64,000 nucleotides of DNA from Tagaea sp. GTDB lineage: Bacteria > Pseudomonadota > Alphaproteobacteria > CACIAM-22H2. Positions 13,449 to 53,826 of this stretch are shown here, piece after piece. The stretch spans positions 1,803,037-1,867,036 of the forward strand of contig OZ245798.1 of assembly GCA_965228135.1 (NCBI GenBank), read 5' to 3'. Position 1 is the stretch's first letter; every line of letters starts with the position of its first letter. The position numbers and the translations under genes were made by a program. The notes beneath the pieces are model-generated. The model did no database searches, was not told the origin of the DNA, and worked only from the letters and a program-made list of their open reading frames with translations.

Positions 13449-13461
13449 CACTTCAAACCAA

Positions 13462-13531
13462 TGATGGGCGATGTAGGGCTCGAACCGACGACAAGCTGAT
13501 TAAGAGTCAGCGGGTAGGTCGAACTAATCCC
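13462..13531 (-). pseudogene. tRNA-Lys(CTT)-like fragment; the 3' half is intact and the 5' half is degenerate
   Basis: On the minus strand, an anticodon arm GCTGA-CTCTTAA-TCAGC (anticodon CTT), a T-arm GTCGG-TTCGAGC-CCTAC and an acceptor 3' strand ATCGCCC-A. The upstream GGGATTAG... cannot form a D-arm or pair with the acceptor. It sits exactly at the left GC-content break. Confidence 0.4.
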
Positions 13532-13958: not shown

Positions 13959-14204
13959 TCACTTACCTGAGGCAGGCTTGGCACGACGAAAGCGCTGGGC
14001 AGGTGTCAAAAGGCCGTGCGAGGTCGATCTGAGCGCGACAGCAAGCTTGTCGAGCATATCCAATGACGCTGCGTAACGCTCGGTCTCCAGAAGCGAAACA
14101 TAGCTGCGGTCAATACCCGCAGCCATCGCCAGGGCTTCCTGGGACATCGCCCGCTCCCGCCGGATACGGCGCAAATTGATTGCCAAAACCCGTCTCGACC
14201 GCAT
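13959..14204 (-). CDS. XRE-family (Cro/CI-type) HTH transcriptional regulator
   Basis: LRRIRRERAMSQEALAMAAGIDRSYVSLLETERYAASLDMLDKLAVAL. A 60-aa ORF (13780..13962) is coupled downstream by a GTGA overlap. Confidence 0.75.
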   Translation of the reverse strand: MRSRRVLAINLRRIRRERAMSQEALAMAAGIDRSYVSLLETERYAASLDMLDKLAVALRSTSHGLLTPAQRFRRAKPASGK

Positions 14205-14313
14205 TCCCGGAGGGGACCAAGTTGCGGCCGAACGATCCACAGAGTATATTCAACAAATTATACTCATAGCCTGTACCCATCAGCAGGCAGGAATCCGCCT
14301 CGCGGCAACCAAG

Positions 14314-14961
14314 CGAATGGCTATCGAGGAGGAGCAATTCAAAGTGCTCGGACGACGGGACGCCCCCGCAGCCCCTGATATACGAAAGCGCCGTCGCTGG
14401 CCGTTTTGGCTCGCTGTCGCGGTCATCACCTGGCTAACGACCGAGAGCGTTTATGACCATCTTCGCCAAGCGCGTCTTGCCAAAGAAGATTCAGTAGAGG
14501 GCCGCGCATTTCGCGCGGAACAGGAGATAGCGGCAGCGGCCAAGGAACAAGCGGCGGCCAGCCGTTACAATGCAGAAAAAGCACGTGCCGCATTCCGAGC
14601 TCTTCCAGAAAAAGATCGAGTTACTCAGGCTGCCATGGATGAGGCCTTCCGCAATCCTGGAAAGAAGCCAAGACTCGCAGATGGTTACTTCATTACCATC
14701 GGCGACTACGGGATCGGTACCTCGGGATGGTATGGAAATATCTGGGTAGCCCGCGATGAGACTACCAAGCCATCGACTTGGTGCGAGTGGGCTGAAAGCT
14801 GGTTTTCATGGGTATGGCGCTGTACCAGCGTCCGCATATGCAGGGACTTCTGGCGCGGTTTTCGTTCTGGCCTTTTATTCATTGTCGTCGATCGCAAACA
14901 GCCGCCCATTCGAGCCTGCCGCGATCCTATTACCGGACTATGGAACAATTATAAGTTCTAG
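14314..14961 (+). CDS. hypothetical membrane-anchored protein (island cargo)
   Basis: Divergent from the XRE gene; it has one TM (WPFWLAVAVITWLTT), a charged A/E/K/R-rich middle and a Trp-rich C-terminus. The start is taken at MAIEEEQ; the track ORF begins at 14176. Confidence 0.4.
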   Translation, partial: RMAIEEEQFKVLGRRDAPAAPDIRKRRRWPFWLAVAVITWLTTESVYDHLRQARLAKEDSVEGRAFRAEQEIAAAAKEQAAASRYNAEKARAAFRALPEKDRVTQAAMDEAFRNPGKKPRLADGYFITIGDYGIGTSGWYGNIWVARDETTKPSTWCEWAESWFSWVWRCTSVRICRDFWRGFRSGLLFIVVDRKQPPIRACRDPITGLWNNYKF

Positions 14962-15042
14962 AAAAATAATTCCATCATCCTCTAATATAAGTCCAATATC
15001 ACCAATCACTGCCCAATCGGCAATGTTTCATAGGCGGCTAAA

Positions 15043-15477
15043 ATGGATCGAAGCGACGCAGCCCGGGAGCTCATGGCGATTTTTCTTGAAACGAAGAGTG
15101 TCCCGACGCCCGATCAACTGATCGCGCGAATTGAGAAAGTTGGAGCTCTTCAAAATCGAGCTCATCCCCTACTTCGCCCCATTACTCGTCAAGAAGCTGT
15201 CGAACTTGCGCAAGGCTCAATGCCGCAAGGGCTGGCCTTACATCGTTTCCGGCGCGCAGAGACGATGTGCGTTTGGATATCTGCCCATCGACGACTATAT
15301 CCTGACGCCTCGACTGACTGGCTCGAAGAGCTTTTCACTATTTTCGAATGGTCGCGATCGGGCTGCGAGGAAGGCGGCGAACTCGGATGCGACTGGATTT
15401 TCGCCGTGGAACACTTTGAAGGTCGCCCGAAGCTTATTCGAGATCCGATCGAAATTTCTCGCTCGAATTTCTTTTGA
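15043..15477 (+). CDS. hypothetical protein (island cargo)
   Basis: 144-aa ORF in a low-GC stretch with no recognisable motif. Confidence 0.35.
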   Translation: MDRSDAARELMAIFLETKSVPTPDQLIARIEKVGALQNRAHPLLRPITRQEAVELAQGSMPQGLALHRFRRAETMCVWISAHRRLYPDASTDWLEELFTIFEWSRSGCEEGGELGCDWIFAVEHFEGRPKLIRDPIEISRSNFF

Positions 15478-15783
15478 CGACTCTATGTCTCAGAACATCT
15501 CCCAATCCGCATTCACTCAACAACGTGATCGGCAGACGCAAGTGCCCACTCAACGTTCTCCCATCCGTTTCCTTCCAGAAAAGGCAGGCTTCCAATGGAA
15601 CCCGATGAAAACGAACAAAAGGAAGTCGGCGCGACCGAAACATCGCTACCGCCCTTATCACCAGATGAGCGGCGTTATATGCCCATGATGGGTTTTTTTC
15701 ATTGCTTCAAGCCCGTCGTTTGGCTGCGAAACTTGGAAGGCCACGGGCCGACGCCGCCTAAGGCAGACAAAGCCGATACCTAA

Positions 15784-16152
15784 CGCGCTTTGAATGCCGG
15801 CAGATCGGCTTTGGCGCTCATTGCCAAGTTTGGCTCAGCTATCGCACTCTCGCACTGGGCCGGGCTGACCCGCTTCGCCGGCGACGGGCGTATCGAGATC
15901 GACAACAACGCGGTCGAACGAGCGATCCGGCCGCAGGCGCTGACCCACAAGAACGCGCTGTTCGCGGGCAGCGACGGCGGCGCGCAACATTGGGCGTGCC
16001 TCGCCTCGCTGATCGAGACCGCAAAGCTCAACGCGCTCGATCCGCTCGCCTAACTGACCGCCACTCTCGAAGCCCTCGCCGCCGGACATCCCATCAACCG
16101 CGCCGGCAAACTCCTCCCTTGGCGATGGGCACACACGCCGTCAACCGTGTGA
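15784..16152 (+). pseudogene. IS66-family transposase (TnpC) C-terminal remnant, 5'-truncated and with an in-frame nonsense codon
   Basis: GDGRIEIDNNAVERAIRPQALTHKNALFAGSDGGAQHWACLASLIETAKLNALDPLA-TAA-LTATLEALAAGHPINRAGKLLPWRW is the diagnostic IS66 C-terminus. The TAA at 16051-16053 replaces a conserved Tyr codon. Confidence 0.8.
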
Positions 16153-16262
16153 GCCAGGCGATGCATACGATGGAACGGCTCGACAAAAACTGCGCGTCTA
16201 GCATCCGGGTAAAGGCAAACGGCTAAGCCGACGGCATGGACAAAAAACCGACTTCGCGGTTG

Positions 16263-17222
16263 CTAAGGAGTCTCGTGATTTCTCAAGAGCGTGCTTAGCG
16301 ATTTGAAGTCCATCCCATACCGCCCCAAATCCAGGATGAATTCGATCAAGTTCTGAGGCGTGTAGCCAAGTGCTCGATGCTTCTCACTCGATATACTGCG
16401 AATCAGCACTATGAGCATTTCAAAATCGATCTTGTTGCGCCCCGCCTCGATCAGAATTACTCCCAGCTTAGGAACAGTGTATCCCAGCTCGCGAATTTCT
16501 TCAGTGAAGGCCCCGTTGACCTCAACTCCGTCAGCGATCATTTCGGACGTGAATGACTTCTCGGTAAGCTTCCGCAAATTCGCACGCCGCTTTCGAATCT
16601 CTGCGGCATAATTCTCGGTCCATCCACTGTACCGCACCGCATGATTCTGATCACGCATTGCCCGCTCACGATAGACCTTTGCACGGTACCCTGGCGATTG
16701 GGCTAGACCTTGCGGAGCGTCAGGGAGAAGCGAGTTACTCGCTGTGAGATCCGGCGCAGCATCCCCGGCCACCACCTTATCTCCGCCGGACCGCAATTTT
16801 GAATCGGTATCAGATCTTGCGATCATCTCTGGCGCCGCTTGGCACGAGGCAATGCCTGCGCCTGAGGCAATAGCATCGGGTTTGATTACTGCAGGATCCG
16901 GCGTAGCTTCACCGACAACCACCCGATCTTCGCTGGGCGGGAGGTTCGCAGTGGCCCCAGGTTTTGCAGTCGCCTCTCGAGAGGTTTGGTTCAGGTCGAT
17001 GTCCACCTCCGTAGACTGGGCACGAGATTTGATCGCGATGGTCAACGCCTTATGCGTTTCGGCGCGGCGTCGGGCGTCCTCGGCATCTCGCTGCGCCTGC
17101 ATCCCCTTTCGCCCGAAATGCGACGACGTATTGGGCGGCGACGCGGCAACTATGTGAGTTGCTCCAGTATCGGCGGGTGTTGCCGTTACAGACGATTGAT
17201 CCAATTTGGTTTTCTCGGACAT
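16263..17222 (-). CDS. hypothetical protein upstream of, and divergent from, the relaxase gene (possible mobilisation accessory protein)
   Basis: 319 aa with an A/P/S/T-rich low-complexity N-terminal half and a structured C-terminal third; no identifiable domain. Confidence 0.4.
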   Translation of the reverse strand: MSEKTKLDQSSVTATPADTGATHIVAASPPNTSSHFGRKGMQAQRDAEDARRRAETHKALTIAIKSRAQSTEVDIDLNQTSREATAKPGATANLPPSEDRVVVGEATPDPAVIKPDAIASGAGIASCQAAPEMIARSDTDSKLRSGGDKVVAGDAAPDLTASNSLLPDAPQGLAQSPGYRAKVYRERAMRDQNHAVRYSGWTENYAAEIRKRRANLRKLTEKSFTSEMIADGVEVNGAFTEEIRELGYTVPKLGVILIEAGRNKIDFEMLIVLIRSISSEKHRALGYTPQNLIEFILDLGRYGMDFKSLSTLLRNHETP

Positions 17223-17288
17223 GAAGCATGCTCCTCAGTTTGCGTGCGCGCTTTCGAGTGCGCCCTAACAAACCGATTATCCACGACC

Positions 17289-17424
17289 GCTCTTAAAAAC
17301 CGCTGCGCGGCGACGTGCCTCCGCCCCTAGATGCCCAGCCATTTTCGACACAGTCAGCAAGGCTTCGTCGAAAACGACGCTCTGCCAAGAATCCGTCTGT
17401 TCGGGCGTAGGCGTTTTTAAGACG
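17289..17424. repeat. inverted-repeat pair CTCTTAAAAACCGC ... GCGTTTTTAAGAC (site A), arms about 105 bp apart
   Basis: Left arm 17289-17304 and right arm 17410-17424. The same motif recurs upstream of the recombinase gene at 21296-21346. Confidence 0.6.
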
Positions 17425-17450
17425 ACTGCCCCTACACTTGCCCTTGTCCG

Positions 17451-17481
17451 CACCGGGCGCTCCCGATGGGAGCGCCCGGTG
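17451..17481. repeat. perfect 14-bp inverted repeat with a 3-nt spacer
   Basis: CACCGGGCGCTCCC-gat-GGGAGCGCCCGGTG in the relaxase upstream region. Confidence 0.8.
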
Positions 17482-17521
17482 CCAAGAGATTACGAGCGGC
17501 CGCAACAGCGGCCGCCCTATT

Positions 17522-17555
17522 CCCTAGTCGGGGACGGCCACGTCCCCGACTAGGG
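17522..17555. repeat. perfect 15-bp inverted repeat with a 4-nt spacer (candidate oriT hairpin or terminator)
   Basis: CCCTAGTCGGGGACG-gcca-CGTCCCCGACTAGGG, about 50 bp before the annotated relaxase start codon. Confidence 0.8.
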
Positions 17556-17612
17556 CGCAATTACGCATTCGCTGCTTCAGGGCAACACGAATGCAGGCTG
17601 TTGGAGGTCTAA

Positions 17613-20600
17613 ATGGCGCGCGACGAACTCGAAGACGACCTTCTACGAACTCGCGCTGGACGCCTCGACGAGTCCGCCGAGCTTTCAAATATAAGGCGAC
17701 TATTAAGCACGCCGCGCAGCCGAAGCGTCTATCTGCCTTCCTTCCGGCATCAACCGCGGCAAACTCGCCCATTCCGGGAGCTCGAGCACCGGTTTCCCAC
17801 AGCGTACCGCGTCGCCGCCACCAACGGCGCCGTCGTATCGACGTTTCATTTCCAGCAAACGTTCCTGTCGAGACGCCCGCTGCCGTCGTTACCGCGATCA
17901 GTGCAGACGGGTAAGCGGACAATAATTTGGCCGACTCGCGGCCAAGCAAAGTTCGTGAGATCTTCTGTCGCCGGTGCGCGGTATCACCGCGATCAACGCG
18001 TCTGGACAGTCCCAAGTGACCATCGATTTCTGAGAACGGCCCTAGGCAAGGCTCTCTCCTCGCCGCTCGCGAGGGCTACAGCAACTTTAAGACGCACGAG
18101 AACCAGCCGCGATGGGATAAAGCGCCAAGCAATCTGGTTTGCGCACTATCTCACAAGAACCGGCCCCCTCGCCGATCGTGCCGACGAACTCGTTCACGAT
18201 AGGGCGGGCCCGATCGTCGAAGGCACAATCGGCAAATCCGCTGCCGAGCTATCGAGCTTTTGGAGTGCTGCAGACGCGGCGGAACCTCGGGTCGATGGCA
18301 GGATTCAAGAGCGTCTCATTATTGAGATTCCTCACTGGCTGCCGCCCGAGGAGATGCGAAAAGCCCTTCAGCGGTTCGGCGCCGAACTGACCGCGCGTGG
18401 CGTGCCCTGGGTCGGTGCTGTGCACAGGCCCGACCCCCATGGGGATCCACGTAATTATCACGTTCATATCGTTCTCGGAACACGGGGGCTAATCGGATGG
18501 GAGATGCGCGCCGTTGACAACGATCCAGGCACCCTTCGCCGCGAACCGATCTTCGCCGATAAGAAAGATCGCGCAATGCAAGGGGAGAAGTGGATCTCAC
18601 ACTTGCGCAAGATCTACGCTGAAATCGTCAATCAAATCTCGATCGAATGGTCGCAGCGCGAAGGAACATTGGTGCCGCGCATTTTCCACGCCGGCAGCAA
18701 TGCCGAACTCGGCATCGAGGCTATACCATCCCGGCATCGAGGCCCTCGGCAAAGCGCGATCGATCGACGTATCGTCGCGCGCGGCGATGAACCTCGCCAC
18801 GTTCCAATTTACGAAGTCCAAGATGAACCCCGCATGGCGCAGATTCTGCGTGGCTTCAATGCCGATGAGGCGGCTTTTCTCGCGCTCTGCGACCGCATAG
18901 AACGCCTCGTCGTCGACGCAGATGCGACTGAATCCATTAGAAGCAGCCGCGCATCGCTGATCACAGCCGCCGACACAACTGCAGCGGCGATTGAGCTGTG
19001 CGAAGAGAAAATCGAAGCGGTCTTGGTCGAATTTCAGGTGGATCGTGACGATGAAAGCCCGATCACCGATCATGATCGAATGTCATCCGACAGCATCCGC
19101 GAACTCGTCGATGCGGTCCGTGTAACCGTTTCTCGTTCCCACGATATCGAAAAGGAACTGATCGCGGTGCTCGCGCATAGCGAGACCATTCGTGACATTT
19201 CGCCGATCACCGAAAGCGCGGCCGCAGAGACAAAATCAGCGAAAGAATTGGAGCAAGCGGAAGCGACGATTGATCACCTGCCTGCCATAAATAAGTCGGT
19301 CATTCATCCGATCGAAGAACAGCACCTTTATGCCAATCCTTCTTCTGGTGAGCGTCCTGAAACTGAACGGTCTGAGCCATCGCACCACGTGCTGGTTACG
19401 TCGCCGCCCGAGCAGCCACAAAGTATCATCGCCGTTAAAGATACTCTTACACGGAGGCTCCAAGACCATCATAGAGCTATTATGCTCATCAAAGAACGAG
19501 GCTGGCGTCACGGGGCTACGGCGACCCGGCACGCCGAAGCTCGAGAAGCTCAGTTCGAGGCATTCAAAAGACGCCTCGCCGCGGAGGAAGCGGCCGAACG
19601 CTGTGAACGTCTCGTCAAATCAATCTCTGAAAGTTCATTCGAGAGTATCGGGCCAAATGACGCGTCACCACACGGCGCGAGCCACCACAACAATCAGTGC
19701 GACTTTGAACAACTCTTAAAAGAATTGGAATTAGCTGATCATCGTATATCGGAAACGCAGCAGGCGCTCGAACATTGGGAAGATATCGAGCGGAAGCTAC
19801 AGGACGTCCCCTTCATCGACGAACGTTTGCATGACCCAAAAAACTTGGTACCGCGGATACTCGAAGAATCTGACCCAGACTGGGTCATCGCAGAAATTCA
19901 AAGACAATTGAAAAAGTGCCGCTGGGTTCCGCGACACCGTGGTCAAAGAATTGTGAAGCCGATGCTTCGCGATGCCGACATCACTCTCGGCGACGTGGTT
20001 GAAGCACGAGTCCGTTACTCGCAAGAGAATGGTTGGACGATTGAATTTCCGCGCTTCTCCAGCGAGAGCGCGCGCCGTGACGCTACGGATCAACAGTGCC
20101 TTTGGATGGCGTTGATTACTCAGATGTTCATGACCACCACGCAAAGTGTCGGTAGCAAAGAGATTGCCGGTATTCTCAAGTGTTATGGCTTCACAAAAAT
20201 CGAGCCCGATAAGAACGGCATCATTGAGATTCGTAGATCTGACGGCTTGCTGCGCGTCGCACGTGATGGTCGCTTTGCAAGCGTCTACGGGTCCAATGTG
20301 GACCTGCATGCGGCGTTCGACGCGTTTGCCCACGCACGCCATGACAGTAGCAGCGACATTGCATTACAGAAAATCCTTGAAAGCAAGAAAGAGCCTCCGC
20401 TCGTTTTTTATCCTAACGATGCCGATCGCAAAGTCGATCTGATTAAGATCGCTAACGATATTCTTCACTTACATGAACTCCAGCCAATCGATCGTCAGCG
20501 CGTTCAGCACGTCGGTCATGCGTTGAAGAAGCACGAGAAGGCGCTAGAGACCTTTCATCCGACATTGAAGCCGGCCGAGAAGCAAGTCGCAGTAGATGAC

Positions 20601-21074
20601 TCGAGTTCGCGGCCTCCATTAATAGAGGCCAAGAATCAGACCGAAGCGGATTTGGAACACGCCCGAGAGCCAAGGCGCCATCTCGCGCGTCAAGAAGATG
20701 ACAGCGGGATATTTGGCCGCCTGACGCGTGGCATCGTGCAATGGTGGCGCGATACGACTGAAGTCCAGGGAGGCGAATCTCGGTCCACAATGAAGCCGTC
20801 AAAGCGCTCGCCTATGAGTTTTGATGCGCGGGCTTTCGAGCATCATGTATCGCGAAATGCGTCTTCGACGAACGCGGCATCCAGCGCGACGCGGATCAAA
20901 CAGGTAGATACGACGCCCGTCACCCAAGCCACGGGGCCAACAATCGCAGCGCGCCCGGCGACGCCTCCGCGGTCGCCAAACATTGGAAACGCCGCAGGCA
21001 GCGGCGGCAGCAGCGTTCACGACGTTATCCAGTCGGTGCGGTCGCGCGGTCGCGACCGTGATCGCGAACGATAA
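17613..21074 (+). CDS. MobA/MobL-family (TraA-like, MOBQ-type) conjugative relaxase with an ~800-aa C-terminal extension of unknown function
   Basis: The 3-His motif VHRPDPHGDPRNYHVHIVL, FW...IIEIPHWLPPEE, a HYLTRTG block and a candidate catalytic Tyr in SSVAGARYHRD are collinear with Ti-plasmid TraA. The first ~96 codons of the track ORF look non-coding; a GTG at 17901 (SVQTGKRTIIW) is the probable start. No Walker A or helicase motif follows. Confidence 0.8.
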   Translation: MARDELEDDLLRTRAGRLDESAELSNIRRLLSTPRSRSVYLPSFRHQPRQTRPFRELEHRFPTAYRVAATNGAVVSTFHFQQTFLSRRPLPSLPRSVQTGKRTIIWPTRGQAKFVRSSVAGARYHRDQRVWTVPSDHRFLRTALGKALSSPLARATATLRRTRTSRDGIKRQAIWFAHYLTRTGPLADRADELVHDRAGPIVEGTIGKSAAELSSFWSAADAAEPRVDGRIQERLIIEIPHWLPPEEMRKALQRFGAELTARGVPWVGAVHRPDPHGDPRNYHVHIVLGTRGLIGWEMRAVDNDPGTLRREPIFADKKDRAMQGEKWISHLRKIYAEIVNQISIEWSQREGTLVPRIFHAGSNAELGIEAIPSRHRGPRQSAIDRRIVARGDEPRHVPIYEVQDEPRMAQILRGFNADEAAFLALCDRIERLVVDADATESIRSSRASLITAADTTAAAIELCEEKIEAVLVEFQVDRDDESPITDHDRMSSDSIRELVDAVRVTVSRSHDIEKELIAVLAHSETIRDISPITESAAAETKSAKELEQAEATIDHLPAINKSVIHPIEEQHLYANPSSGERPETERSEPSHHVLVTSPPEQPQSIIAVKDTLTRRLQDHHRAIMLIKERGWRHGATATRHAEAREAQFEAFKRRLAAEEAAERCERLVKSISESSFESIGPNDASPHGASHHNNQCDFEQLLKELELADHRISETQQALEHWEDIERKLQDVPFIDERLHDPKNLVPRILEESDPDWVIAEIQRQLKKCRWVPRHRGQRIVKPMLRDADITLGDVVEARVRYSQENGWTIEFPRFSSESARRDATDQQCLWMALITQMFMTTTQSVGSKEIAGILKCYGFTKIEPDKNGIIEIRRSDGLLRVARDGRFASVYGSNVDLHAAFDAFAHARHDSSSDIALQKILESKKEPPLVFYPNDADRKVDLIKIANDILHLHELQPIDRQRVQHVGHALKKHEKALETFHPTLKPAEKQVAVDDSSSRPPLIEAKNQTEADLEHAREPRRHLARQEDDSGIFGRLTRGIVQWWRDTTEVQGGESRSTMKPSKRSPMSFDARAFEHHVSRNASSTNAASSATRIKQVDTTPVTQATGPTIAARPATPPRSPNIGNAAGSGGSSVHDVIQSVRSRGRDRDRER

Positions 21075-21295
21075 AGAGCCCCTCACTGACCATGGCCGAC
21101 CTAGCAAGCTACGGGGCGAAGCAATTCGCTGGGGAGATCTACCAAGCAGCTCGGTCAATGCGCGATGAGAGCCAAGCTTTGGATAGCCTCGCGCCCGACG
21201 CGGAGCACGGAGGCAAGACAGCCGCCACGACACCGCCCAAGACGGCTCGACGGATATCCATCTAAGTTATTGTAAATAATATACTATTTAGATTT

Positions 21296-21346
21296 CTCTT
21301 AAAACCGCTCGAAAGAGCCAAGCCGCGACGCGGCCGTTTTTAAGAC
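21296..21346. repeat. inverted repeat CTCTTAAAACCGCT-(22 bp)-GGCCGTTTTTAAGAC (site B) after an AT-rich stretch; candidate recombinase/att or oriT-like site
   Basis: Same arms as site A at 17289/17410. Preceded by ctaagttattgtaaataatatactatttagattt, about 240 bp upstream of the recombinase start. Confidence 0.55.
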
Positions 21347-21581
21347 CCCAGCTTGACAATGTCCGCATGGATAGGACGAGCAAATCCAGCGGCCGGGGCG
21401 GCATCTACGCCCCTGAGCCGGCGCCCAGCGAGGGCGCCGGCGGCCGATCAGATTCGTCCTCGACCCTCCATGCCCAAGCGAACGAACTTCTACGTACCCT
21501 TGCACGTCTGCTTGTGCACGACAGCGAATTGCAGCAGCCTCAAGCGCCGATGGATAAGACCTCAGATCAGCCGAAGGACGA

Positions 21582-23243
21582 ATGCAAATGATCAGGGCTG
21601 CGATCTACGCACGCTATTCCAGCGACTTGCAGCGCGAATCCTCGATCGACGATCAGGTCAGAATTTGCCGGGAGCGGATCGAACGCGACGGCGGCGCCGT
21701 TACGGAAACCTACGCCGACGCAGCGATCAGTGGATCGCGTGCAGCAAACCGCCCTTCACTTCAACGACTGGTAAGCGACGCTCGCCTTCGTCGGTTCACT
21801 CACGTCTATATGGAGGCGCTGGACCGACTGAGTCGCGACCAGGAAGACGTTGCCGGACTGTTCAAGCGGTTACGTCATGCGGACGTGACCGTCATCACGT
21901 TGAGCGAGGGCGAAATCAGCGAACTGCACGTCGGGCTAAAGGGCACGATGAACGCCCTCTACCTAAAAGACCTTGCTGACAAGGTACGACGCGGCCAGCG
22001 CGGCCGTGTGGCCCAACAACGAGCGGCAGGAGGACTCGGATACGGATACGATGTCGTTCGGAACATCGACAGCGATGGCGAGATCGATCGTGGCGTCCGC
22101 GCGGTCAACGAGACCGAGGCAGGCGTGATCCGGCGTATTTTTGGCGAGTATGTGGCTGGTAGATCACCCCGCACCATCGCACGAAACTTGAATGCAGATG
22201 GCGTTCCTGCGCCGCGCGGGGGCGCCTGGAATGCGTCAACAATAAATGGGCATCCCGTGCGCCTGCACGGTATCCTGACAAATCCCTTATTCAATGGCGT
22301 GATGATCTACAACCGTGTCGGTTATCGCAGGGATCCAGAAACGGGAAAGCGTCAACTCCGCTCGGTACCATCGGACCAATGGGTCCATGTTGAGATGCCG
22401 CATTTACGTATCGTCGACCCTGATACTTGGAACAAAGCACAATCGATTCGAGGCCAACTCGGTCAGACAAAGCGCCTAAACCATACTCATAGGCCCAAGC
22501 ACCTGCTGTCGGGGCTCATACGTTGCGGCATTTGTGGCGGAGCATACACGGTGGTCGCCTCAGGCCGACTTGGCTGTGTTGCACGCCGCGAAAAAGGGAC
22601 ATGCACCAACGCGCGGTCGGTAAAAACCGAGGAACTAACCACACGCGTGCTATCGGGAATCAAACAGCGCCTTCTGTCTCCTGCGATGTTCGCCGAATTT
22701 ATGGAAGAATTTCAGGCGACGCAGTCCGCCCGCGATAAGGCCGAGATCGACAACATGGCCGCACTCCGTCGAGAAGAGCGGGAACTCAATCAGCGAATCG
22801 AACGTTACGTGACCGCTATTGGGGATGGAACAGACAGCCCTGCAGTTCGGAAAGCCCTAATCGAGGCAGAGAATCGGATCGCCGCGATTCGCGCCGAAAT
22901 GTGCAAATCCAAACCGCCGTCGGCCCCCGAACTGCATCCGGCGTTACCTGAGCTATACCGTCGGCGCGTCGAGCAGCTTGAACACGCGTTCGCCAATGAC
23001 CCGACAAACAGAGCGCGAGCTGCCCAGATCATCCGGTCCCTCGTGGAGCAGATTCGGGTATTTCCCCAGGACGCGCGCGGTGCTGTCGAAATTGAGGTCG
23101 CAGGCGCCATCGCCCAGATACTGGCGTTGGCACAACAAAAAGACGTCGAAGATCAAATGGATGGAATGATGGTCTCGATGGTGCCCGGGGCCGGAATCGA
23201 ACCAGCGACACTGCGATTTTCAATCGCATGCTCTACCAACTGA
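21582..23243 (+). CDS. large serine recombinase (resolvase/invertase N-terminal domain, recombinase domain, zinc ribbon, coiled-coil)
   Basis: AAIYARYSSDLQ (catalytic Ser), LDRLSRD, and CGICGGAY...C..C zinc ribbon. The last ~22 codons read through the tRNA-Phe gene on the opposite strand. Confidence 0.9.
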   Translation: MQMIRAAIYARYSSDLQRESSIDDQVRICRERIERDGGAVTETYADAAISGSRAANRPSLQRLVSDARLRRFTHVYMEALDRLSRDQEDVAGLFKRLRHADVTVITLSEGEISELHVGLKGTMNALYLKDLADKVRRGQRGRVAQQRAAGGLGYGYDVVRNIDSDGEIDRGVRAVNETEAGVIRRIFGEYVAGRSPRTIARNLNADGVPAPRGGAWNASTINGHPVRLHGILTNPLFNGVMIYNRVGYRRDPETGKRQLRSVPSDQWVHVEMPHLRIVDPDTWNKAQSIRGQLGQTKRLNHTHRPKHLLSGLIRCGICGGAYTVVASGRLGCVARREKGTCTNARSVKTEELTTRVLSGIKQRLLSPAMFAEFMEEFQATQSARDKAEIDNMAALRREERELNQRIERYVTAIGDGTDSPAVRKALIEAENRIAAIRAEMCKSKPPSAPELHPALPELYRRRVEQLEHAFANDPTNRARAAQIIRSLVEQIRVFPQDARGAVEIEVAGAIAQILALAQQKDVEDQMDGMMVSMVPGAGIEPATLRFSIACSTN

Positions 23244-23254
23244 GCTACCCGGGC
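23179..23254 (-). tRNA. tRNA-Phe (anticodon GAA)
   Basis: Minus strand reads GCCCGGGTAGCTCAGTTGGTAGAGCATGCGATTGAAAATCGCAGTGTCGCTGGTTCGATTCCGGCCCCGGGCACCA. This is a canonical 76-nt cloverleaf, near-identical to E. coli tRNA-Phe, with CCA encoded. Confidence 0.95.
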
Positions 23255-23298: not shown

Positions 23299-23955
23299 TC
23301 AACGCCTGGAAGCCGCCGATTTCTTCTGACTTTTCGGCGGCTTAAGCGCCGCCTCGGCCTCCGCGTCCAGACGGCGTTTTTCCGCCGCCGGAACCTTCGT
23401 CCAATGGAGCCCGCGCAACGCCGCATACAGCCCGTAAAGCAGGTTGCGCGTCGCCTCGCGCGGACGCCGCCGTTTGACGGCGATATAGGCGCCGACGGCA
23501 CCGGCGCGCTTCAGATCGTCGATGCCGACGATCCCCGCGTCGCCCAGCCACGCCTGCGATTTGGGGCCAAGGCTGGCGAGATCGGCAATGCGCTTGGGGG
23601 CGGCTTTCGACTTTTTCTCCGGCATGCGCATCGCGGCGTCGACGGCACCGCGCGCCCAGTCCCGCATTTCGCCCGCGTCGTCGAGCGCTTCGGGCGGGGG
23701 CTCGTAATAACCAAGCGACACCCGTTTCTTCGACTTGGCCATGTAGGTGAAGGGCTCGAGCCCCGCCGCCTCGAATTGCGGGCGGTTCGCGGCGTCGGTC
23801 TTGAGATAGAGCCGATCGTCGACGATCAGCCCGAACATCCGCCCGTCGCGAAATAAGCCCCAACCCGAGAACATCCGCTTAGCCGAAACGCGCCCCACCG
23901 CCTCGCCCAGCAATTCGACGCACATGTCGACGAAGCCGCCGGGCGCGCCGCTCAT
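23299..23955 (-). CDS. tfoX: TfoX/Sxy-family protein (N- and C-terminal TfoX domains)
   Basis: RMFSGWGLFRDGRMFGLIVDDRLYLKTD (TfoX_N) and a C-terminal DLASLGPKSQAWLGDAGIVGIDDLKRAGAVGAYIAVK (TfoX_C-like). Confidence 0.7.
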   Translation of the reverse strand: MSGAPGGFVDMCVELLGEAVGRVSAKRMFSGWGLFRDGRMFGLIVDDRLYLKTDAANRPQFEAAGLEPFTYMAKSKKRVSLGYYEPPPEALDDAGEMRDWARGAVDAAMRMPEKKSKAAPKRIADLASLGPKSQAWLGDAGIVGIDDLKRAGAVGAYIAVKRRRPREATRNLLYGLYAALRGLHWTKVPAAEKRRLDAEAEAALKPPKSQKKSAASRR

Positions 23956-46049: not shown

Positions 46050-47768
<1,719 letters not shown>

Positions 47769-47796
47769 GACGCGGACACTTCACGGCAACGCAAAC

Positions 47797-47835
47797 CCCG
47801 GTGCGGGCATTTCCCGCATCGGGGTTTTCTTTTTG
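47797..47835 (+). terminator. rho-independent terminator after leuA
   Basis: CCCCGGTGCGGG-cattt-CCCGCATCGGGG followed by TTTTCTTTTT. Confidence 0.65.
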
Positions 47836-47883
47836 CGGGTGCCGGATTGACCAAGTTGCATTTCCTGCGCGAAACTCGCGCGT

Positions 47884-48828
47884 ATGAAAAAAGCCTGGTT
47901 CGCCCTTGCCGCTTTGGCCGGTATCGCCGTCGCAGGCGTCATCGTCGATCGGCTACCGCAGCCATCCTTCGACAAACCGCTTTATGTAGCGATCGAACCT
48001 CCGTCTTCGGCCGAAGCTTGCGCCGAATGGCATGCGCGCGCCATGCGCCGCGCCATGCATTGGCGAGCCTCGCTCGAAGCCTTTGAAGGCTTTTCCCGAT
48101 ATCAGGGCGCCTGCCACCCCAAGGACCAAGCCACAGGCCGGATGATGATCGAATCCGCCATCGCCAAGGGCGCGGGTGAAACGCTGTTTATCGAGTATTT
48201 CTTGGCGCTCGCCACGCATGGCGACAGTGACCGCGCCGACCGCGAGTTTCCGATCGTCGCCGAAATTCTGGTGACCTATCCCGGCAACCATCGGAAGCTG
48301 ATCGCCGATTGGGAAAGGATGCTGCCTTTCGTCCTGCAGGAACGCGCCCAGTTCCGCAATCTCGACCAATGGGCGCCGATCGTCGAACGGATCGAGTATG
48401 TCCTATCTCGCCCCACAATCGCGGCGCGCCCCGAACGCGCCTATCTCGACCTGCTGCTGTTTCAGCTTATCAAGGTCGATAACATCGCCGGGAATCTGAT
48501 GATGGACAAGGTCGGCCGGCTGGGGCGCGTCGACCTGCCGAAAGGCTGGCATCGCGACATGTATCTAAATGCCGCAGCTAATTGCGGCAATGCGGAGGCG
48601 ATACTCCGCCGCGCCCAACTCTACATCGCCGGGGAGCTCTCGCAACCAAGTGCGGAAGGGATCGCAACGTCATTGATCTGGCTCGAAGAACAAGAAGGTA
48701 AGCAAAACGATCTATTGGCGAAGGTCACCGAAATGGGGAAGTTCCGCCCCTTCGACGATGATCGCTGGCGCGCCGTCGAAAGCTACGAATACGTCAAAGC
48801 CAGAAACTGCGACACTCGCACAAATTAA
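47884..48828 (+). CDS. hypothetical secreted protein (possibly Sel1/TPR-like helical repeats) in a low-GC islet
   Basis: Signal peptide MKKAWFALAALAGIAVAGVIV; GC content drops to about 55%. Confidence 0.5.
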   Translation: MKKAWFALAALAGIAVAGVIVDRLPQPSFDKPLYVAIEPPSSAEACAEWHARAMRRAMHWRASLEAFEGFSRYQGACHPKDQATGRMMIESAIAKGAGETLFIEYFLALATHGDSDRADREFPIVAEILVTYPGNHRKLIADWERMLPFVLQERAQFRNLDQWAPIVERIEYVLSRPTIAARPERAYLDLLLFQLIKVDNIAGNLMMDKVGRLGRVDLPKGWHRDMYLNAAANCGNAEAILRRAQLYIAGELSQPSAEGIATSLIWLEEQEGKQNDLLAKVTEMGKFRPFDDDRWRAVESYEYVKARNCDTRTN

Positions 48829-48834
48829 CGTTTT

Positions 48835-50292
48835 CTACGCTCCGCGCGAGATCGCGTCGCGAACGATTTCGTTACGCTTGGCAAGCTCGCGCTGAATTTC
48901 TTTCAGCCAATTATCATAAGCCTCCCGCTCGCTGCTCAATCGGCGGAGTTCGGATTTCGCGCGATTCTCCTCCACCATTGATAAAGATACATCTCTTTCA
49001 CGCAGGACATTCCCGCTGACGGCGGCAGCGCCAGCCGCCGCGGCCGCACCGACAGCCACGCCCGGCACGGTCATCGCGGCGCCACTGACCGGACCACCGA
49101 TGATCTGAGCAGCAATGGCGTGTGCCGCCGGCGTCCGCACCGCGTTGGCTGTCGCGAATGTCGCCGCCCGCGCCGCATCGGTTGGCAAACGCCCAAAGAA
49201 ACGATCGTTGATCGCTTTCGTTTCGGTCTCGGCGGCCCCTTGACGCGCCTGCGCTTCTTCGATTTTCGTGTCGATCTCCTTCAGATCGCGATCCGATTGC
49301 TGGAGGATCGCCTGAAGATCTTCGTCCGCGAGTTTGGTGAAATCGGGGAAGGGCGGGATTGGCGCATCGGGCTCCCGAACGGTTCCGGGGCCCATAGCGA
49401 TTTGAGTGGGCGGTTCGGTTGGCGACACCTCCGGCGTTTGCGCCACTTGCTGGGCGTCGGTTGCGTGCTCCGCCCGCCCTTCCTCGACCATCGCCGCGTA
49501 TCGCTGCGCGGCGTCCGCGCGCGGCGTGCCGATCGGCGGGCCTTGGGGGATTTCGCTCGCGAGATAGGCGCTCTGGTATTCGGGCTTGTCGCCGAGCGCT
49601 TGGAGCATCGCGCGGGCGAATTTATTGCCCTCGCCGGGGCGGAGCGCTTCCCAGCGCTGGGTCATGTCGCGCGCTTGCATGATCCCGCGCACCGGGTCCT
49701 GATCGACGTATTTCTTGAGCTCCGCCGGAATGCCGTCGAACGAGCCGTTGGCCGAGGCGGCGTGCTTCGCCCAGCTTTCGTTCCATTCGTCGAACCCGGC
49801 CTTCGCCGCCAGTGGGTCCAGGCGGGGATGCGGGTTGACCTTCAATTCCGGCCAGCGATCGATCAGCAACCCGTCCTCGCCCTGGTCGCGAAGTGCGTGA
49901 TGCGCATCGGCCATCGCCGGCGTGGGGGCTGGGAAGCTGGCGAACATGTCGCCGTAATCCTGGCGGAAACGGTTGATCGTCTCGCCATCCGGGCGCAAGA
50001 ACCCGTCGATCTTCAGGCCGTTGCGCTTCTGGTATTCCTTGATCGGCGCATCCAAACGCTCGTTGGCGTAACCCCACGGCCCGTCCAGCCGCTCCAAATC
50101 GAACAAGCCCGCTTGGTTCAACAGGCTTTCGACCTTGATCACGTCGCGGCGGTGATTGGTGCGACCGCGCCCGACCTCGTCGGACAGCGCGAACCAATCG
50201 CTCGATCCCGGCCGGTCGCCGAGCATCAGATCGTCGTCTTGTTTGAGCCAAGTGGGGATGGAAAAGGACATCGAAACGCTCCTGAGCGACAC
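48835..50292 (-). CDS. hypothetical protein with an N-terminal peptidoglycan-binding (PG_binding_1-like) domain and a Gly/Ala-rich glycine-zipper segment
   Basis: VIKVESLLNQAGLFDLERLDGPWGYANERLDAPIKEYQKRNGLKIDGFLRPDGETINRF; later AAHAIAAQIIGGPVSGAAMTVPGVAVGAAAAAGAAAVSGNV followed by coiled coil. Confidence 0.5.
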   Translation of the reverse strand: MSLRSVSMSFSIPTWLKQDDDLMLGDRPGSSDWFALSDEVGRGRTNHRRDVIKVESLLNQAGLFDLERLDGPWGYANERLDAPIKEYQKRNGLKIDGFLRPDGETINRFRQDYGDMFASFPAPTPAMADAHHALRDQGEDGLLIDRWPELKVNPHPRLDPLAAKAGFDEWNESWAKHAASANGSFDGIPAELKKYVDQDPVRGIMQARDMTQRWEALRPGEGNKFARAMLQALGDKPEYQSAYLASEIPQGPPIGTPRADAAQRYAAMVEEGRAEHATDAQQVAQTPEVSPTEPPTQIAMGPGTVREPDAPIPPFPDFTKLADEDLQAILQQSDRDLKEIDTKIEEAQARQGAAETETKAINDRFFGRLPTDAARAATFATANAVRTPAAHAIAAQIIGGPVSGAAMTVPGVAVGAAAAAGAAAVSGNVLRERDVSLSMVEENRAKSELRRLSSEREAYDNWLKEIQRELAKRNEIVRDAISRGA

Positions 50293-50350
50293 GCGGTACG
50301 CTCAGGATCGGCGCATCCAAAAACACGAACAACTTATTTTATTTTAGGAT

Positions 50351-50368
50351 TGAATTCCTAATTTCGCG
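50351..50368. promoter_or_regulatory. inverted repeat TTAGGA-ttgaat-TCCTAA in an AT-rich intergenic region (candidate operator)
   Basis: Seen directly in aacttattttattttaggattgaattcctaatttcgcg. Confidence 0.3.
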
Positions 50369-50649
50369 CCGATGGGAATTTAATCCTCGCCCCCGCCACC
50401 CCGGCGCCGTCGAAGATTTGCGCAAGGCCATGCAGGCACGGAAACGACGGATCGTTTTCGGCGGCACCCAGCAAACGGCCGCGTAAGATCGGGGCGACGA
50501 AAACAAGTCGCGATGCCGCGAACGACACGCTTCAACCTTGCCGATCGCTTCTCGGCAAAACGCCACGACGCGCGAAATTCCAGTGCTTCGGCGCGGCCTC
50601 GAAAACGATTCGATCCCACAAGCCGATGAAAGCGAAGCTAGATTCGCGC

Positions 50650-51093
50650 TCAGCGCCCGCGCGGGGCGATCTTCGACGTTTTGAGACGCGCGAGGAAGGC
50701 GGCTTTATGCGTCGTGCGCCATTCCTCGAAATCCCATGGCGTATCGGAGGCGCGCAGCGCCCCGCTGCCGTCGGGCACATAGACCAGCGCTTGCAGGCGC
50801 TTGCCGTCGGCGCGTTCGACGACCCAGGATTCCGCGCGATAGCCCTTGCCTTCATAGGCGTCGAGCAACGCCTTGGCTTCGGGCGACACGTCCAGCGCCA
50901 GCACGCCCGGCGTCTTCGCGCGGCCGTCGGCGACGACGACCGGGAAGGTCGCGCGTTCGGCCTTGCGCCGGCGCCAGCCGAGCAGCGTGGCGTCCTCCAC
51001 GCGCTTGGGCGCCTTGCCGCCCAGCACCGCGCGGCGCACGGCGGGATCGATCAGCGTGCCGTAGAAGAAAAACTTGAGAGGTGTAACGGCCAT
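50650..51093 (-). CDS. gamma-glutamylcyclotransferase (AIG2-like) family protein
   Basis: FFFYGTLIDPAVRRAVLG; the start is taken at MAVTPLKF. Confidence 0.7.
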   Translation of the reverse strand: MAVTPLKFFFYGTLIDPAVRRAVLGGKAPKRVEDATLLGWRRRKAERATFPVVVADGRAKTPGVLALDVSPEAKALLDAYEGKGYRAESWVVERADGKRLQALVYVPDGSGALRASDTPWDFEEWRTTHKAAFLARLKTSKIAPRGR

Positions 51094-51094
51094 A

Positions 51095-52495
51095 TCAATG
51101 TCCCGCCGCGGCATCTTGCGGCAGGTCAACGCCGGATTTCGCGAGTTGCGCTTCGAGGGCGGCCGTCAAACGCGCCAGCCCCGCTTCGGTTTTCGACTCG
51201 CAGCGCGCGACCAGCACGTCCTGCGTGTTCGACGCGCGCAGCAGCCACCAGCCGTCGGGGCCGTTGACGCGCACGCCGTCGACCGGGTTCACGTCCGCCC
51301 CTTCGGCGGCGAGGCGCTTGCGCACTTCCTCGACCACTTCGCGCTTGCGCGTTTCCGAGCAGGGGAAGCGCAGCTCCGGCGTGTTGATCACGGTCGGCAA
51401 ACGGTCGCGGATATCGGCGAGGCTTTCCGGACGCTTGGCGAGGATCGAGAGCAAGCGAAGCCCCGCATACATCGCGTCGTCGAAACCGTACCAGCCATCG
51501 GCGAAGAAGATATGGCCCGACATTTCGCCCGCGAGCGGTGCCGCCGTTTCGGCCATCTTGGTCTTGATGATCGAATGGCCGGTCTTCCACATCAGCGGCT
51601 TGCCGCCCATGCGCGCGATTTCGTCGAACAGGACCTGGCTCGCCTTCACGTCGGCGATGATGGTCGAGCCCGGCAGACGCGCGAGAATTTCCGAGGCCAG
51701 CACGGCGACGAGCTGGTCGCCCCACAGGATCCGGCCCTTGCCGTCGACCACGCCGATGCGGTCGCCGTCGCCATCGAAGGCGATGCCGAGATCGGCTTTC
51801 TTCGCCGCGACCGCGTCCTGCAATTGGACGAGATTCTTGGCGACCGTCGGATCGGGATGGTGGGCGGGGAAGCGCCCGTCGATTTCGGCGTTCAGCAGCG
51901 TATGCGTGCCGGGCAGCTTGGCGCAGACATCGACCATCACCTGGCCCATGGCGCCGTTGCCCGCATCCCACACGACGTTGAGCTTCTTCCCGTCCTTCGG
52001 GAAATCGCGCAGCAGCCGCGCGACATAGGCCGCGCGCACGTCCACGTCGCTGGCCTTGCCCTTGCCGTCGGCGACTTTGCCTTCGGCGCAGGCCTTGCCC
52101 ATCGCCTGAATGTCGGCGCCCCAGAACGAGGCTTTGCCGATCGTCATCTTGAAGCCGTTGTAATCGGCCGGGTTGTGGCTGCCGGTGATCATCACGCCGC
52201 CGTCGAGGCCCAGATCGCGCGCGGCGAAATAGAGCATCGGCGTGGGGCCGAGCCCCACCTTGCGCACGTCGAGGCCGCAATCGATCAAGCCTTCGATCAC
52301 CTTGCCCGACAATTCGGGCGACGACAGCCGCCCATCCCAGCCGACGGCGACGGTCTTGCCGCCCTTGGCGACGATCGCCGAGCCGAAGCCGCGACCGACC
52401 GCATAGGCATCGGCCGCCGACAAGGTTTTGCCGACGATCCCGCGCACGTCGTATTCGCGAAGAACCGTCGCTTCGAACGCGTGGCGGAACGCCAT
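51095..52495 (-). CDS. phosphomannomutase/phosphoglucomutase (alpha-D-phosphohexomutase)
   Basis: [10 protein letters not shown], active-site [23 protein letters not shown]. The real CDS is [12 protein letters not shown]..., the C-terminal 466 aa of the track ORF. Its 3' coordinate is approximate (1-nt TGATG overlap with ugd). Confidence 0.9.
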
Positions 52496-53826
52496 CAGCC
52501 GGCCTCCGCGCCCGTGGCGGTCGCGGGGCGGCCGATCGACGTGTACTCGAACCCGGCGGCCTTCATGTCGGCCGGCGCGTAGCAATTGCGCAGATCGACG
52601 ATCACCGGCTTCTTCAAGAGCTTCTTCACGCGGTCGAGCTGCAGCGCGCGGAACTCGTTCCATTCGGTAATGATGAGGGCGCAATCCGCCCCCTCCATCG
52701 CCGAATAGGCGTCCTTGGCGAGTTCGACGCCCGGCAGCATCGCCTTGGCTTCGTGCATGCCTTCGGGATCGTAGGCGACGACCTTCGCACCCGCTTCCTG
52801 CAACGCGGGCAGAATGTCGAGCGAGGGGCTATCGCGCATATCGTCGGTGTTCGGCTTGAAGGTGAGGCCGAGGACCGCGACCGTCTTGCCCTTGACCGAC
52901 CCGCCGCACGCGGCGACGACGCGCTGGGCCATCGCCTTCTTGCGCTTGTCGTTGATGTCGACGACCGTTTCGATGATGCGCAGCGGACTGCCGTAATCCT
53001 GCGCGGTCTTGACCAGGGCCAGCGTATCCTTCGGGAAGCACGAGCCGCCGTAACCGGGGCCGGGATGCAGGAACTTCTTCCCGATGCGCCCGTCGAGGCC
53101 GATCCCCTTGGCGACGTCGTGAACGTCGGCGCCGACCTTCTCGCACAGATCGGCGACTTCGTTGATGAAGGTGATCTTGGCGGCGAGGAACGTGTTCGCC
53201 GCGTATTTGATCAGCTCCGACGTTTCGAGCGACGTGAATACGATCGGCGTTTCGATCAGATACAACGGGCGATAAAGCTGGCGCATCACTTCGCGCGCGC
53301 GCTCGCTTTCCGCCCCGATCACCACGCGGTCGGGGCGCATGAAATCGCCGATCGCGGCACCCTCGCGCAGGAATTCCGGGTTCGACGCGACGTCGAATTG
53401 CGCGTCGGGGCGCACGGCCTTGATGCGGCGCTGGACTTCGCGGCCCGTACCCACCGGCACGGTCGACTTCGTCACGATGACGGCATAGCCGGTCAACGCG
53501 CGGCCGATTTCCTCGGCGGCGGCGTAAACGTAGGAGAGATCCGCATGCCCATCGCCACGGCGCGACGGCGTGCCCACCGCGATGAAGATCGCGTCCGCAC
53601 CCGGCACGGCCTTGGCGAGATCGGTCGTGAAATGCAGGCGGCCCGCCTTCACGTTCGTCTCGACCAGCTTGTCGAGGCCCGGTTCGAAGATCGGAATGCC
53701 GCCCTTGTTCAGGCGTTCGATCTTGCCGGAATCCTTATCGACGCAGGTGACGTCGACGCCGAATTCGGAAAAGCACGCCCCGGTCACCAGGCCCACATAG
53801 CCGGTACCGACCATCACGATGCGCAT
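52495..53826 (-). CDS. ugd: UDP-glucose 6-dehydrogenase
   Basis: [27 protein letters not shown]. Confidence 0.95.

Follow-up and report, generated by a model that had tools for sequence, protein, structure and literature searches.

Which kind of system would keep its chromosomal position in every close relative while exchanging most of its coding sequence within that position? The question is raised by a locus of Tagaea sp. (Alphaproteobacteria) contained in a stretch of 64,000 nucleotides (assembly GCA_965228135.1, contig OZ245798.1, positions 1,803,037 to 1,867,036), hereafter called the window, in which all coordinates are given unless another locus is named. Two open reading frames (ORFs) in tail-to-tail orientation sit there between leuA and the GGACT and sugar-nucleotide genes. 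One encodes a large protein with a peptidoglycan-binding domain near its N-terminus and the other a partner of 314 amino acids (aa). A 1.5-kb cassette holding the 3' part of the large gene and nearly all of the partner gene has been swapped between near-identical strains, and C-termini also occur with their partners as orphan modules. On the strength of these sequence comparisons, we consider it probable that the locus is a resident hypervariable module of the toxin/immunity type and represents a polymorphic-toxin family, so far undescribed, from Rhodospirillales-like Alphaproteobacteria.

A swapped cassette between leuA and the GGACT gene

A preliminary description of the window had placed two convergent genes between leuA and the sugar-nucleotide genes, and both ORFs were confirmed. 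The features of the pair are as follows.

47841-47930, + strand: left conserved handle, consisting of the partner upstream region and partner codons 1-16 (MKKAWFALAALAGIAV)
47884-48828, + strand: partner gene, 314 aa in the ORF list; candidate periplasmic immunity protein
47931-49431, no strand: variable cassette of 1.5 kb, consisting of partner codons 17-314, the 6-bp spacer and large-gene codons 281-478
48829-48834, no strand: spacer of 6 bp separating the convergent stop codons
48835-50292, - strand: large gene as listed, 485 aa from a GTG start
48835-50271, - strand: likely extent of the large gene, 478 aa from the ATG at 50271
48835-49431, - strand: variable C-terminal portion (aa 281-478) of the large protein, of class A; candidate toxin domain
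49003-49119, - strand: Gly/Ala-rich hydrophobic segment, aa 385-423, from the Kyte-Doolittle profile and a motif scan
49432-50271, - strand: conserved N-terminal portion (aa 1-280) of the large protein; right recombination handle and the part that defines the wider family
49474-49884, - strand: conserved helical middle domain, aa ~130-266, from relatives, a DNA match in locus L005 and the structure model
49999-50148, - strand: PG_binding_1-like domain, aa 42-91 of the 478-aa protein, from Pfam

The large gene likely starts at the ATG at 50271 rather than at the listed GTG, to judge from an AGGAG motif located 7 nucleotides upstream from this codon (50283-50279) and from the start shared by database proteins. 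The gene for a 485-aa protein reported in the preliminary description is thus retained, with a different start and a likelier length of 478 aa.

Relatives of the pair are few. A search of 5.8 billion proteins returned 12 clusters for the large protein and 4 for the partner. Among 185,579 species genomes, there were three carriers, two metagenome-assembled genomes (MAGs) of Tagaea and one alphaproteobacterial MAG. The pair keeps its position between leuA and the GGACT and PGM genes in every relative recovered (loci L001, L006-L008, and L019-L021), metagenome contigs included. These results indicate that the locus is a resident hypervariable one and not a recent or strain-specific insertion.

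The flanking proteins are 95-99% identical in the relatives, whereas the cassette (47931-49431) is replaced by alleles that are about 25% identical. In the comparison with L001, identity is 98.7-98.9% for the leuA, GGACT, and PGM proteins and 94.9% for aa 1-292 of the large protein, but just ~28% for its C-terminus and for the partner. According to blastn, DNA homology breaks at 47930 and returns at 49432/3 in every allelic locus (L001-L004, L006, and L008). The first breakpoint falls in codon 16 of the partner gene, at the end of its invariant leader, and the second in codon ~280 of the large gene. The cassette therefore contains the sequence for about the last 200 aa of the large protein and for the whole partner apart from the 16 invariant residues of its signal sequence.

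At least five C-terminal classes were distinguished among just 12 protein clusters, and three of them (A, B, and C) all occur at the leuA-GGACT locus. Between classes, aa 1-280 of the large protein are 80-97% identical and the C-terminus 21-35%. Partner identity is 85% within class A and 23-33% between classes.

Modules consisting of a C-terminus and its partner were also found as additional copies. In L006 (Tagaea sp. CACIAM 22H2) and L021, a full-length class C gene with its partner precedes a second tandem unit, which comprises a copy of the stretch running from the leuA terminator to the partner upstream region (window 47771-47930), an N-truncated gene, and a partner of its own. The truncated gene begins at about aa 134-154 and has a class A C-terminus; its class A partner is 86% identical to that of the window. 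The leuA terminator forms the left border of the module, and the orphan module of L006 carries its own copy (window 47771-47930 repeated at L006 12294-12454). Locus L005 has a truncated copy and a partner in an unrelated context, beside recX and an acetyltransferase gene, and shares just two handles with the window, 47841-47930 (91% DNA identity) and 49473-49889 (89%). Homologous recombination acting on such shared handles would be an obvious way to exchange cassettes. Among distant members of the family, L014 and L015 harbor short C-terminal fragments downstream, each followed by a second candidate immunity gene, and in L010 a leader-bearing, convergent gene comes after an orphan fragment.

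Two further observations concern the distribution of copies. Two unrelated family members (L005 12100-13844 and L014 1-1272) lie near a shared set of genes encoding Lon-substrate-binding, Trm112p, GBBH-like_N, and GNAT acetyltransferase proteins, which hints at a second preferred site for the modules. In one metagenome assembly, a full class B locus at leuA (L020, JAESFZ010000005.1) coexists with an isolated N-terminal fragment (L022 4001-4330, JAESFZ010000007.1), which covers only aa 97-206 (P0021 cluster, ORFs of 98-166 aa) and could represent a copy in decay or a further substrate for recombination.

The two proteins and the wider family

The N-terminal ~280 aa of the large protein comprise an acidic tip, a PG_binding_1 domain, a linker (FPAPTP..DAHH), and a helical middle domain that stops just past a conserved ...IPQGPPIGT... 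motif (aa 241-249). The middle domain is retained in the N-truncated orphan copies P0009 and P0011 and has 89% DNA identity in L005. In the single protein, the match to PG_binding_1 (PF01471) is borderline (aa 49-98 of the 485-aa ORF, E = 1.4e-4, 22.4 bits versus a cut-off of 23). It was accepted at the family level because 68 of the 81 relatives scanned match the same model (E ≤ 0.001, best 3.2e-16). The peptidoglycan-binding domain of the preliminary description is thus solid for the family, and its statement that the large protein has no signal peptide also holds, no hydrophobic N-terminal leader being present.

The class A C-terminus consists, in order, of a Pro-rich linker, a long helix, a Gly/Ala hydrophobic core, a second long helix, and a basic tail. 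The zipper-like hydrophobic segment reported earlier was found at aa 385-423. It is Ala-rich and marginally hydrophobic, with a Kyte-Doolittle maximum of 1.65 over 19 residues (KD19), and contains one strict glycine-zipper match, GPVSGAAMT, at aa 393, together with a GxxxG motif at aa 404. Three consecutive glycine-zipper matches are present in each of two other proteins, the sister allele P0002 and the distant P0024. Only class A alleles have the hydrophobic segment, the KD19 maximum of the other classes being at most 0.84. The AlphaFold models of both proteins are shallow and of low confidence. That of the large protein is poor overall (pLDDT 45.7), its better parts being two long helices (aa 316-359 and 404-475, block pLDDT ~54-85) that flank the hydrophobic core. 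Foldseek comparison with the PDB returned generic helical hairpins and coiled coils, all non-significant (E ≥ 0.03), including the RipA N-terminal domain, Tc-toxin, the colicin E3/E9 receptor domain, and AhlB. Scans of the single sequence against Pfam, NCBIfam, PHROGs, and PADLOC gave just the borderline PG_binding_1 match, SleB-type peptidoglycan-binding matches, and a weak tape-measure match. A search of PDB sequences with profiles of both proteins gave nothing meaningful. P0002 is itself a full-length, paralogue-like protein that shares 81% identity with the large protein. It carries a related C-terminus of class A and is not present in the window; the genome may hold this second complete copy elsewhere.

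The 314-aa partner begins with MKKAWFALAALAGIAVAGVIV, which on visual inspection resembles a leader or anchor of the Sec type, as expected from the secreted-looking protein first described. Residues 1-16 (MKKAWFALAALAGIAV) are near-invariant across alleles, with a single I/V change. The length of the partner is constant between classes and four cysteines (C46, C77, C234, and C309) are invariant, which suggests that the partner would have two periplasmic disulfides. Its AlphaFold model is an all-helical repeat (pLDDT 57.8; 77-93 for the C-terminal 90 aa), and the top Foldseek matches are AlgK, LpnE, and Sel1 proteins, all non-significant (E 0.06-2). The Sel1/TPR-like character proposed in the preliminary description agrees with the fold of this model and with the nature of these top matches (E ≥ 0.06), but is at odds with the Pfam results, since no Sel1 or TPR model matched at E ≤ 10 in five partner variants; it is weakly supported. 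The partner had no match in Pfam, NCBIfam, PHROGs, or PADLOC.

A profile of the 12 large proteins was compared with 1.84 billion cluster representatives, giving 705 matches at E ≤ 1e-3 and 245 at E ≤ 1e-10. The family thus amounts to about 700 members, counted as clusters at 50% identity in public data. Most matches cover positions ~20-260 and belong to proteins of 400-750 aa with unrelated C-termini. In the 81 members scanned with Pfam and NCBIfam, the C-terminus matched Peptidase_M23, Glucosaminidase, GH108/PG_binding_3, DUF6973, the BPSL0067 family (n = 7), or a holin-associated muramidase model; most C-termini matched no model. Named members, from Tagaea, Rhodospirillales bacterium, Magnetovibrio blakemorei, and Alphaproteobacteria bacterium, are called only "hypothetical" or "peptidoglycan-binding protein". 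The searchable literature on the family, on Tagaea, and on combinations of DUF4893, BPSL0067, and Rap1a contains no description of such a system, and the family libraries give it no name.

Six distant loci have housekeeping surroundings and small neighbor genes, most of them with Sec-type leaders. One distant member adjoins a gene of the Rap1a family (PF18602), which comprises type VI secretion system (T6SS) immunity proteins. Convergent neighbors, as at the window locus, are present in L012 (DUF4893), L015 (175 aa), and L017 (203 aa). The C-termini of the distant proteins P0018 and P0041 look alike by eye, and a shared partner family was considered for them and rejected, the partners in L012 and L017 being unrelated; a GH108-like assignment of the same C-termini, made by eye, found no confirmation in Pfam. 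Although the C-terminal domains of family members are unrelated, the final 25 residues carry a net positive charge in 22 of the 24 members checked and are often rich in Arg (RRRESRRRPR, RPSRARR). These tails were considered as a signal of the type IV secretion system (T4SS) kind, an idea dropped as non-specific.

A proposed toxin and immunity module weighed against its rivals

The preliminary description had likened the pair to an effector and its immunity protein. That likeness was strengthened by the sharp-edged swapping of the cassette, the co-inheritance of C-terminus and partner, the orphan modules, and the lytic C-termini and signal-peptide neighbors of relatives. Three of the properties by which polymorphic toxins are recognized are found here, namely a conserved N-terminus joined to a C-terminus that varies sharply, a linked partner that varies along with this C-terminus, and orphan modules.

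From these properties, we infer toxicity of the C-terminus, immunity conferred by the partner, a periplasmic site of action and, for class A, pore formation. In the mechanism that we propose, the conserved N-terminal ~280 aa would provide export, targeting, or anchoring at the cell wall and the exchangeable C-terminal ~200 aa would be the active part. The class A C-terminus would form a long helical hairpin with a Gly/Ala, glycine-zipper-like tip that inserts into the inner membrane and permeabilizes it from the periplasmic side. The window allele is probably membrane-active and non-enzymatic, a proposal that is the weakest step of the scheme. The partner would be produced from its own promoter on the opposite strand, exported by its invariant leader, probably with two disulfides, and would bind and neutralize its cognate C-terminus in the periplasm. 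Homologous recombination between the two handles (the partner leader with its upstream region, and the N-terminal coding region of the toxin) would swap the 1.5-kb cassette and generate new specificities, the orphan modules acting as a reservoir of cassettes.

Several observations weigh against a toxin and immunity module. A recognized trafficking domain or dedicated secretion genes, also expected of polymorphic toxins, were not found: PAAR, VgrG, MIX, TPS, LXG, and XVIPCD domains were absent at the Pfam thresholds used, and no T6SS, T4SS, type I secretion system, lysis, or phage genes were present within 10 kb in the ~12 loci examined. With no trafficking domain, no signal peptide, and no such genes nearby, it is hard to account for the path of a cytoplasmically made protein into another cell. 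The Tagaea C-termini are helical, of low complexity, and non-enzymatic, and since only class A has a hydrophobic segment, no toxic mechanism common to all classes can be discerned. In Tagaea, the C-terminal classes and their partners resemble divergent homologues (equal lengths, conserved cysteines, ~25% identity) and not unrelated domains, a pattern that also fits a co-evolving binding pair devoid of toxicity. The co-inheritance that speaks for the module was seen across 21 locus pairs, in which partner identity was correlated with C-terminal identity (Pearson r = 0.89) and not with N-terminal identity (r = -0.12), but the relationship was driven by the few same-class pairs and was weak by rank (Spearman 0.30, p = 0.18). 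Co-variation of this kind is also expected from physical linkage alone. Finally, the structure models are poor (pLDDT 45.7 for the large protein and 57.8 for the partner).

Comparison with known systems places the pair close to polymorphic toxins, with differences. These systems, defined by Zhang, Aravind et al. 2012 (PMC3482391), include contact-dependent inhibition (CDI) CdiA-CT/CdiI, Rhs-CT/RhsI, and LXG toxins, and some of their C-terminal toxin domains are non-catalytic and hydrophobic (PMC3482391, section 36). As in those systems, a conserved N-terminus is joined to a sharply bounded, recombining C-terminus with a tightly linked partner that changes with it; as in CDI and Rhs, C-terminus and partner modules occur as orphans beside the main gene or elsewhere, and there are many alleles among very close strains. 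Unlike in polymorphic toxins, the N-terminus of the window family matches no described trafficking domain and has no associated secretion gene, the partner gene is convergent rather than co-directional with its leader acting as a second recombination handle, and the local C-termini are divergent homologues instead of unrelated toxin folds.

Two routes of delivery, as a T6SS cargo or as a released colicin-like protein, are compatible with the data. A large protein acting as the cargo effector of a T6SS encoded elsewhere in the genome would attack the periplasm of neighboring cells, and its partner would be a periplasmic immunity protein. Effector and immunity pairs that are orphan and distant from tss clusters are known, and membrane-active effectors with glycine zippers, Tse4 and Ssp6, exist. 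As in the periplasm-acting pairs Tae/Tai, Tge/Tgi, and Ssp1/Rap1a, the candidate immunity protein, unlike the large protein, carries a signal peptide, some of the C-termini in the family are cell-wall enzymes of the amidase, muramidase, or M23 type typical of periplasm-acting effectors, and the one Rap1a-family neighbor points the same way. Against this route, PAAR, VgrG, Hcp, MIX, FIX, DUF4123, DUF1795, and DUF2169 genes or domains were absent from the protein and from the surrounding 10 kb in the same ~12 loci, in which no T6SS marker, adaptor, or structural gene was present, and convergent immunity genes are unusual for T6SS pairs. We regard T6SS delivery as unlikely, although of the rival explanations it is the strongest. 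A modular bacteriocin resembling colicins or S-pyocins, released and then imported by relatives, would use its N-terminus for receptor binding and translocation and its C-terminus for killing. In colicins B and M, the immunity gene lies on the opposite strand and has a promoter of its own, periplasmic immunity being membrane-anchored and disulfide-dependent (PMC8469651); colicin M has no lysis gene (PMC8469651; PMC5358913), and the ColM family has been treated as polymorphic toxins (PMC5821083). The window pair matches the pore-forming colicins and colicin M in its conserved N-terminus, its exchangeable C-terminal module, and its linked partner gene, downstream on the opposite strand (convergent, 6-bp spacer) with a presumed promoter of its own. 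It further resembles colicin M in having no lysis gene nearby and a candidate immunity protein with a leader and cysteines, as in the periplasmic, membrane-anchored, and disulfide-dependent Cmi. The hairpin of the structure model also had Foldseek matches to the receptor-binding hairpins of colicins E3 and E9 and to the alpha-pore-former AhlB, which were non-significant (E ≥ 0.03) and obtained with a low-confidence model. No sequence similarity to colicin or pyocin domains was detected in Pfam, NCBIfam, or PDB sequences, and no significant fold similarity was seen. The N-terminus has a PG_binding_1 domain, not known as a translocation or receptor element of colicins, instead of TonB or Tol boxes, no TonB or TolB box being recognizable by eye. 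No lysis gene or SOS-type regulation was evident. The context is chromosomal and housekeeping, in an alphaproteobacterium, and the partner is a 300-aa helical repeat in contrast to the 117-aa Cmi/YebF fold or an integral membrane protein. A bacteriocin is improbable.

Explanations that involve no weapon fare differently with the same observations. The two proteins could form a co-evolving envelope pair, a peptidoglycan-associated coiled-coil protein and a periplasmic helical-repeat partner, with an interface under diversifying selection, for example in kin recognition or in escape from phages or predators. The constant length, conserved cysteines, and conserved central Gly motif of the divergent C-terminal classes and partners agree with such a pair, as do the lack of an enzymatic domain, the lack of a hydrophobic segment in four of the five classes, and the conserved position of the locus in all relatives. 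However, distant relatives with the same N-terminus bear several lytic-enzyme C-termini and leader-bearing neighbors, one of an immunity family. Such C-termini and the orphan modules are hallmarks of toxin systems that are hard to fit to a structural pair, and surface exposure to phages is unlikely for a large protein that lacks an export signal. An envelope pair is also improbable, if less so than a bacteriocin. A recent low-GC islet or a prophage remnant, carrying an endolysin, a tape-measure protein, or a spanin-like lysis module, has in its favor weak PHROG matches (tape-measure protein, E = 0.0058; endolysin, E = 0.093), a peptidoglycan-binding domain in a protein devoid of signal peptide, and the lower third-position GC of the cassette. 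The PHROG matches are confined to the peptidoglycan-binding and coiled-coil parts, the GC content is only 1.8 points under the window mean, and the site is the same in all relatives. No relative was found in 50,697 phage records, PLSDB plasmids, or IMG/VR at the sensitivity used (tblastn; locus search for IMG/VR), and no integrase, tRNA, direct repeats, or phage genes adjoin the pair. The origin from a phage suggested in the preliminary description found no backing in these searches or in the 10 kb around the ~12 loci, and this explanation, largely refuted, is highly improbable.

Returning to the toxin and immunity module, the immunity proteins of CDI ionophore toxins are membrane proteins, unlike the soluble or anchored helical repeat that is the candidate in the window. 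The Staphylococcus aureus toxin EsxX has a membrane-depolarizing C-terminus with a glycine zipper (PMC12744356) and resembles, like the CDI ionophore toxins (PMC11630599), the class A C-terminus, which combines a small-residue or glycine-zipper-like hydrophobic segment with the lack of an enzymatic domain. The immunity proteins of these toxins are described as distinct, compartment-specific families (PMC12744356). The segment in the window differs from these toxins in that it has only one strict zipper match, is Ala-rich, and is only marginally hydrophobic (KD 1.65).

More tentatively, the conserved ~260-aa N-terminal module could be a new export or targeting domain defining an unrecognized class of interbacterial toxins in Rhodospirillales-like Alphaproteobacteria. 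Its route would lie outside the described polymorphic-toxin pathways or would involve a new mode of recognition by a known machine, with immunity genes on the opposite strand and an immunity leader doubling as a recombination handle. This is possible rather than probable. If the main reading of a toxin and immunity module is right, some 700 clusters at 50% identity would represent an unannotated family of competition toxins, and would offer a handle on how leaderless proteins targeting the cell wall and the membrane exit these alphaproteobacteria. The locus would also be a compact natural system for cassette exchange (1.5 kb between handles of 90 bp and 840 bp), and its co-evolving pairs of helical toxins and helical-repeat immunity proteins would be suited to studies of specificity.

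Flanking genes, transcription, and base composition

The features surrounding the pair are the following.

46098-47768, + strand: leuA, with domain matches HMGL-like, IPMS_D2, and LeuA_dimer
47793-47837, + strand: leuA intrinsic terminator, with a 15-bp stem (47793-47827) and then a T-run; tail TCTTTTTGCG
50272-50649, - strand: upstream intergenic region of the large gene, 378 bp, AT-rich (GC 0.571), ~97% conserved in L001
50650-51129, - strand: GGACT-family gene, from a domain match

The GGACT gene is followed by PGM/PMM, UDP-glucose dehydrogenase, and GalU-like genes. The mechanically called PGM/PMM ORF (51095-52684, - strand, 529 aa, TTG start) exceeds in length the gene called in relatives (466 aa), and its true start is thus probably internal. 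The 3' end of this ORF shares 35 bases with the start of the GGACT ORF.

The spacers between the convergent stop codons are 6-22 bp long in the relatives (L001 and L005-L008), without a terminator in between. The 6-bp spacer of the window has no room for a terminator, and the convergent transcripts therefore probably overlap. This 3' overlap could provide antisense or collision control. A scan with the sigma-70 consensus detected no convincing promoter at the locus, the leuA terminator being the only prominent signal, and an Rfam scan of 47000-51500 gave no match. Upstream from the partner ATG, no Shine-Dalgarno sequence is evident and a TTGACC hexamer, not called by the consensus scan, is present at 47847-47852, ~31 nucleotides upstream; the partner mRNA might be leaderless.

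The preliminary description had presented the locus as a low-GC islet with a drop of more than 10 points. The GC content of 47880-50340 is 0.618, versus 0.636 for the whole window (sd 0.032 for windows of that size), i.e. 1.8 points lower. Only two 400-bp dips were found, 0.535 (48600-48999) and 0.573 (50000-50399). The GC content is 0.655 in the conserved part of the large gene and 0.602 in the cassette. At third codon positions, it is 0.70 in the partner gene and 0.66 in the variable 3' part of the large gene, compared with 0.83 for the conserved 5' part of that gene and a range of 0.82-0.87 for the flanks, so that the lowered values are confined to the inner variable cassette. The comparison of the leuA flanks proposed in the preliminary description returned half of the pattern that it had named as contrary to its own account, the pair being present at the same locus in every relative recovered. 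With a composition near background and this conserved position, the impression of a foreign low-GC islet is corrected.

A true low-GC stretch is located elsewhere in the window, at about 13300-23250, with a minimum of 0.52-0.54 (windows of 1.5-2.5 kb starting at ~13.3-19.6 kb). It encodes a 1153-aa protein with a MobA/MobL relaxase domain (17613-21074, + strand) and a large serine recombinase (21582-23243, + strand), and is adjoined by a TfoX gene (23299-23955, - strand). This stretch is probably an integrative mobilizable element.

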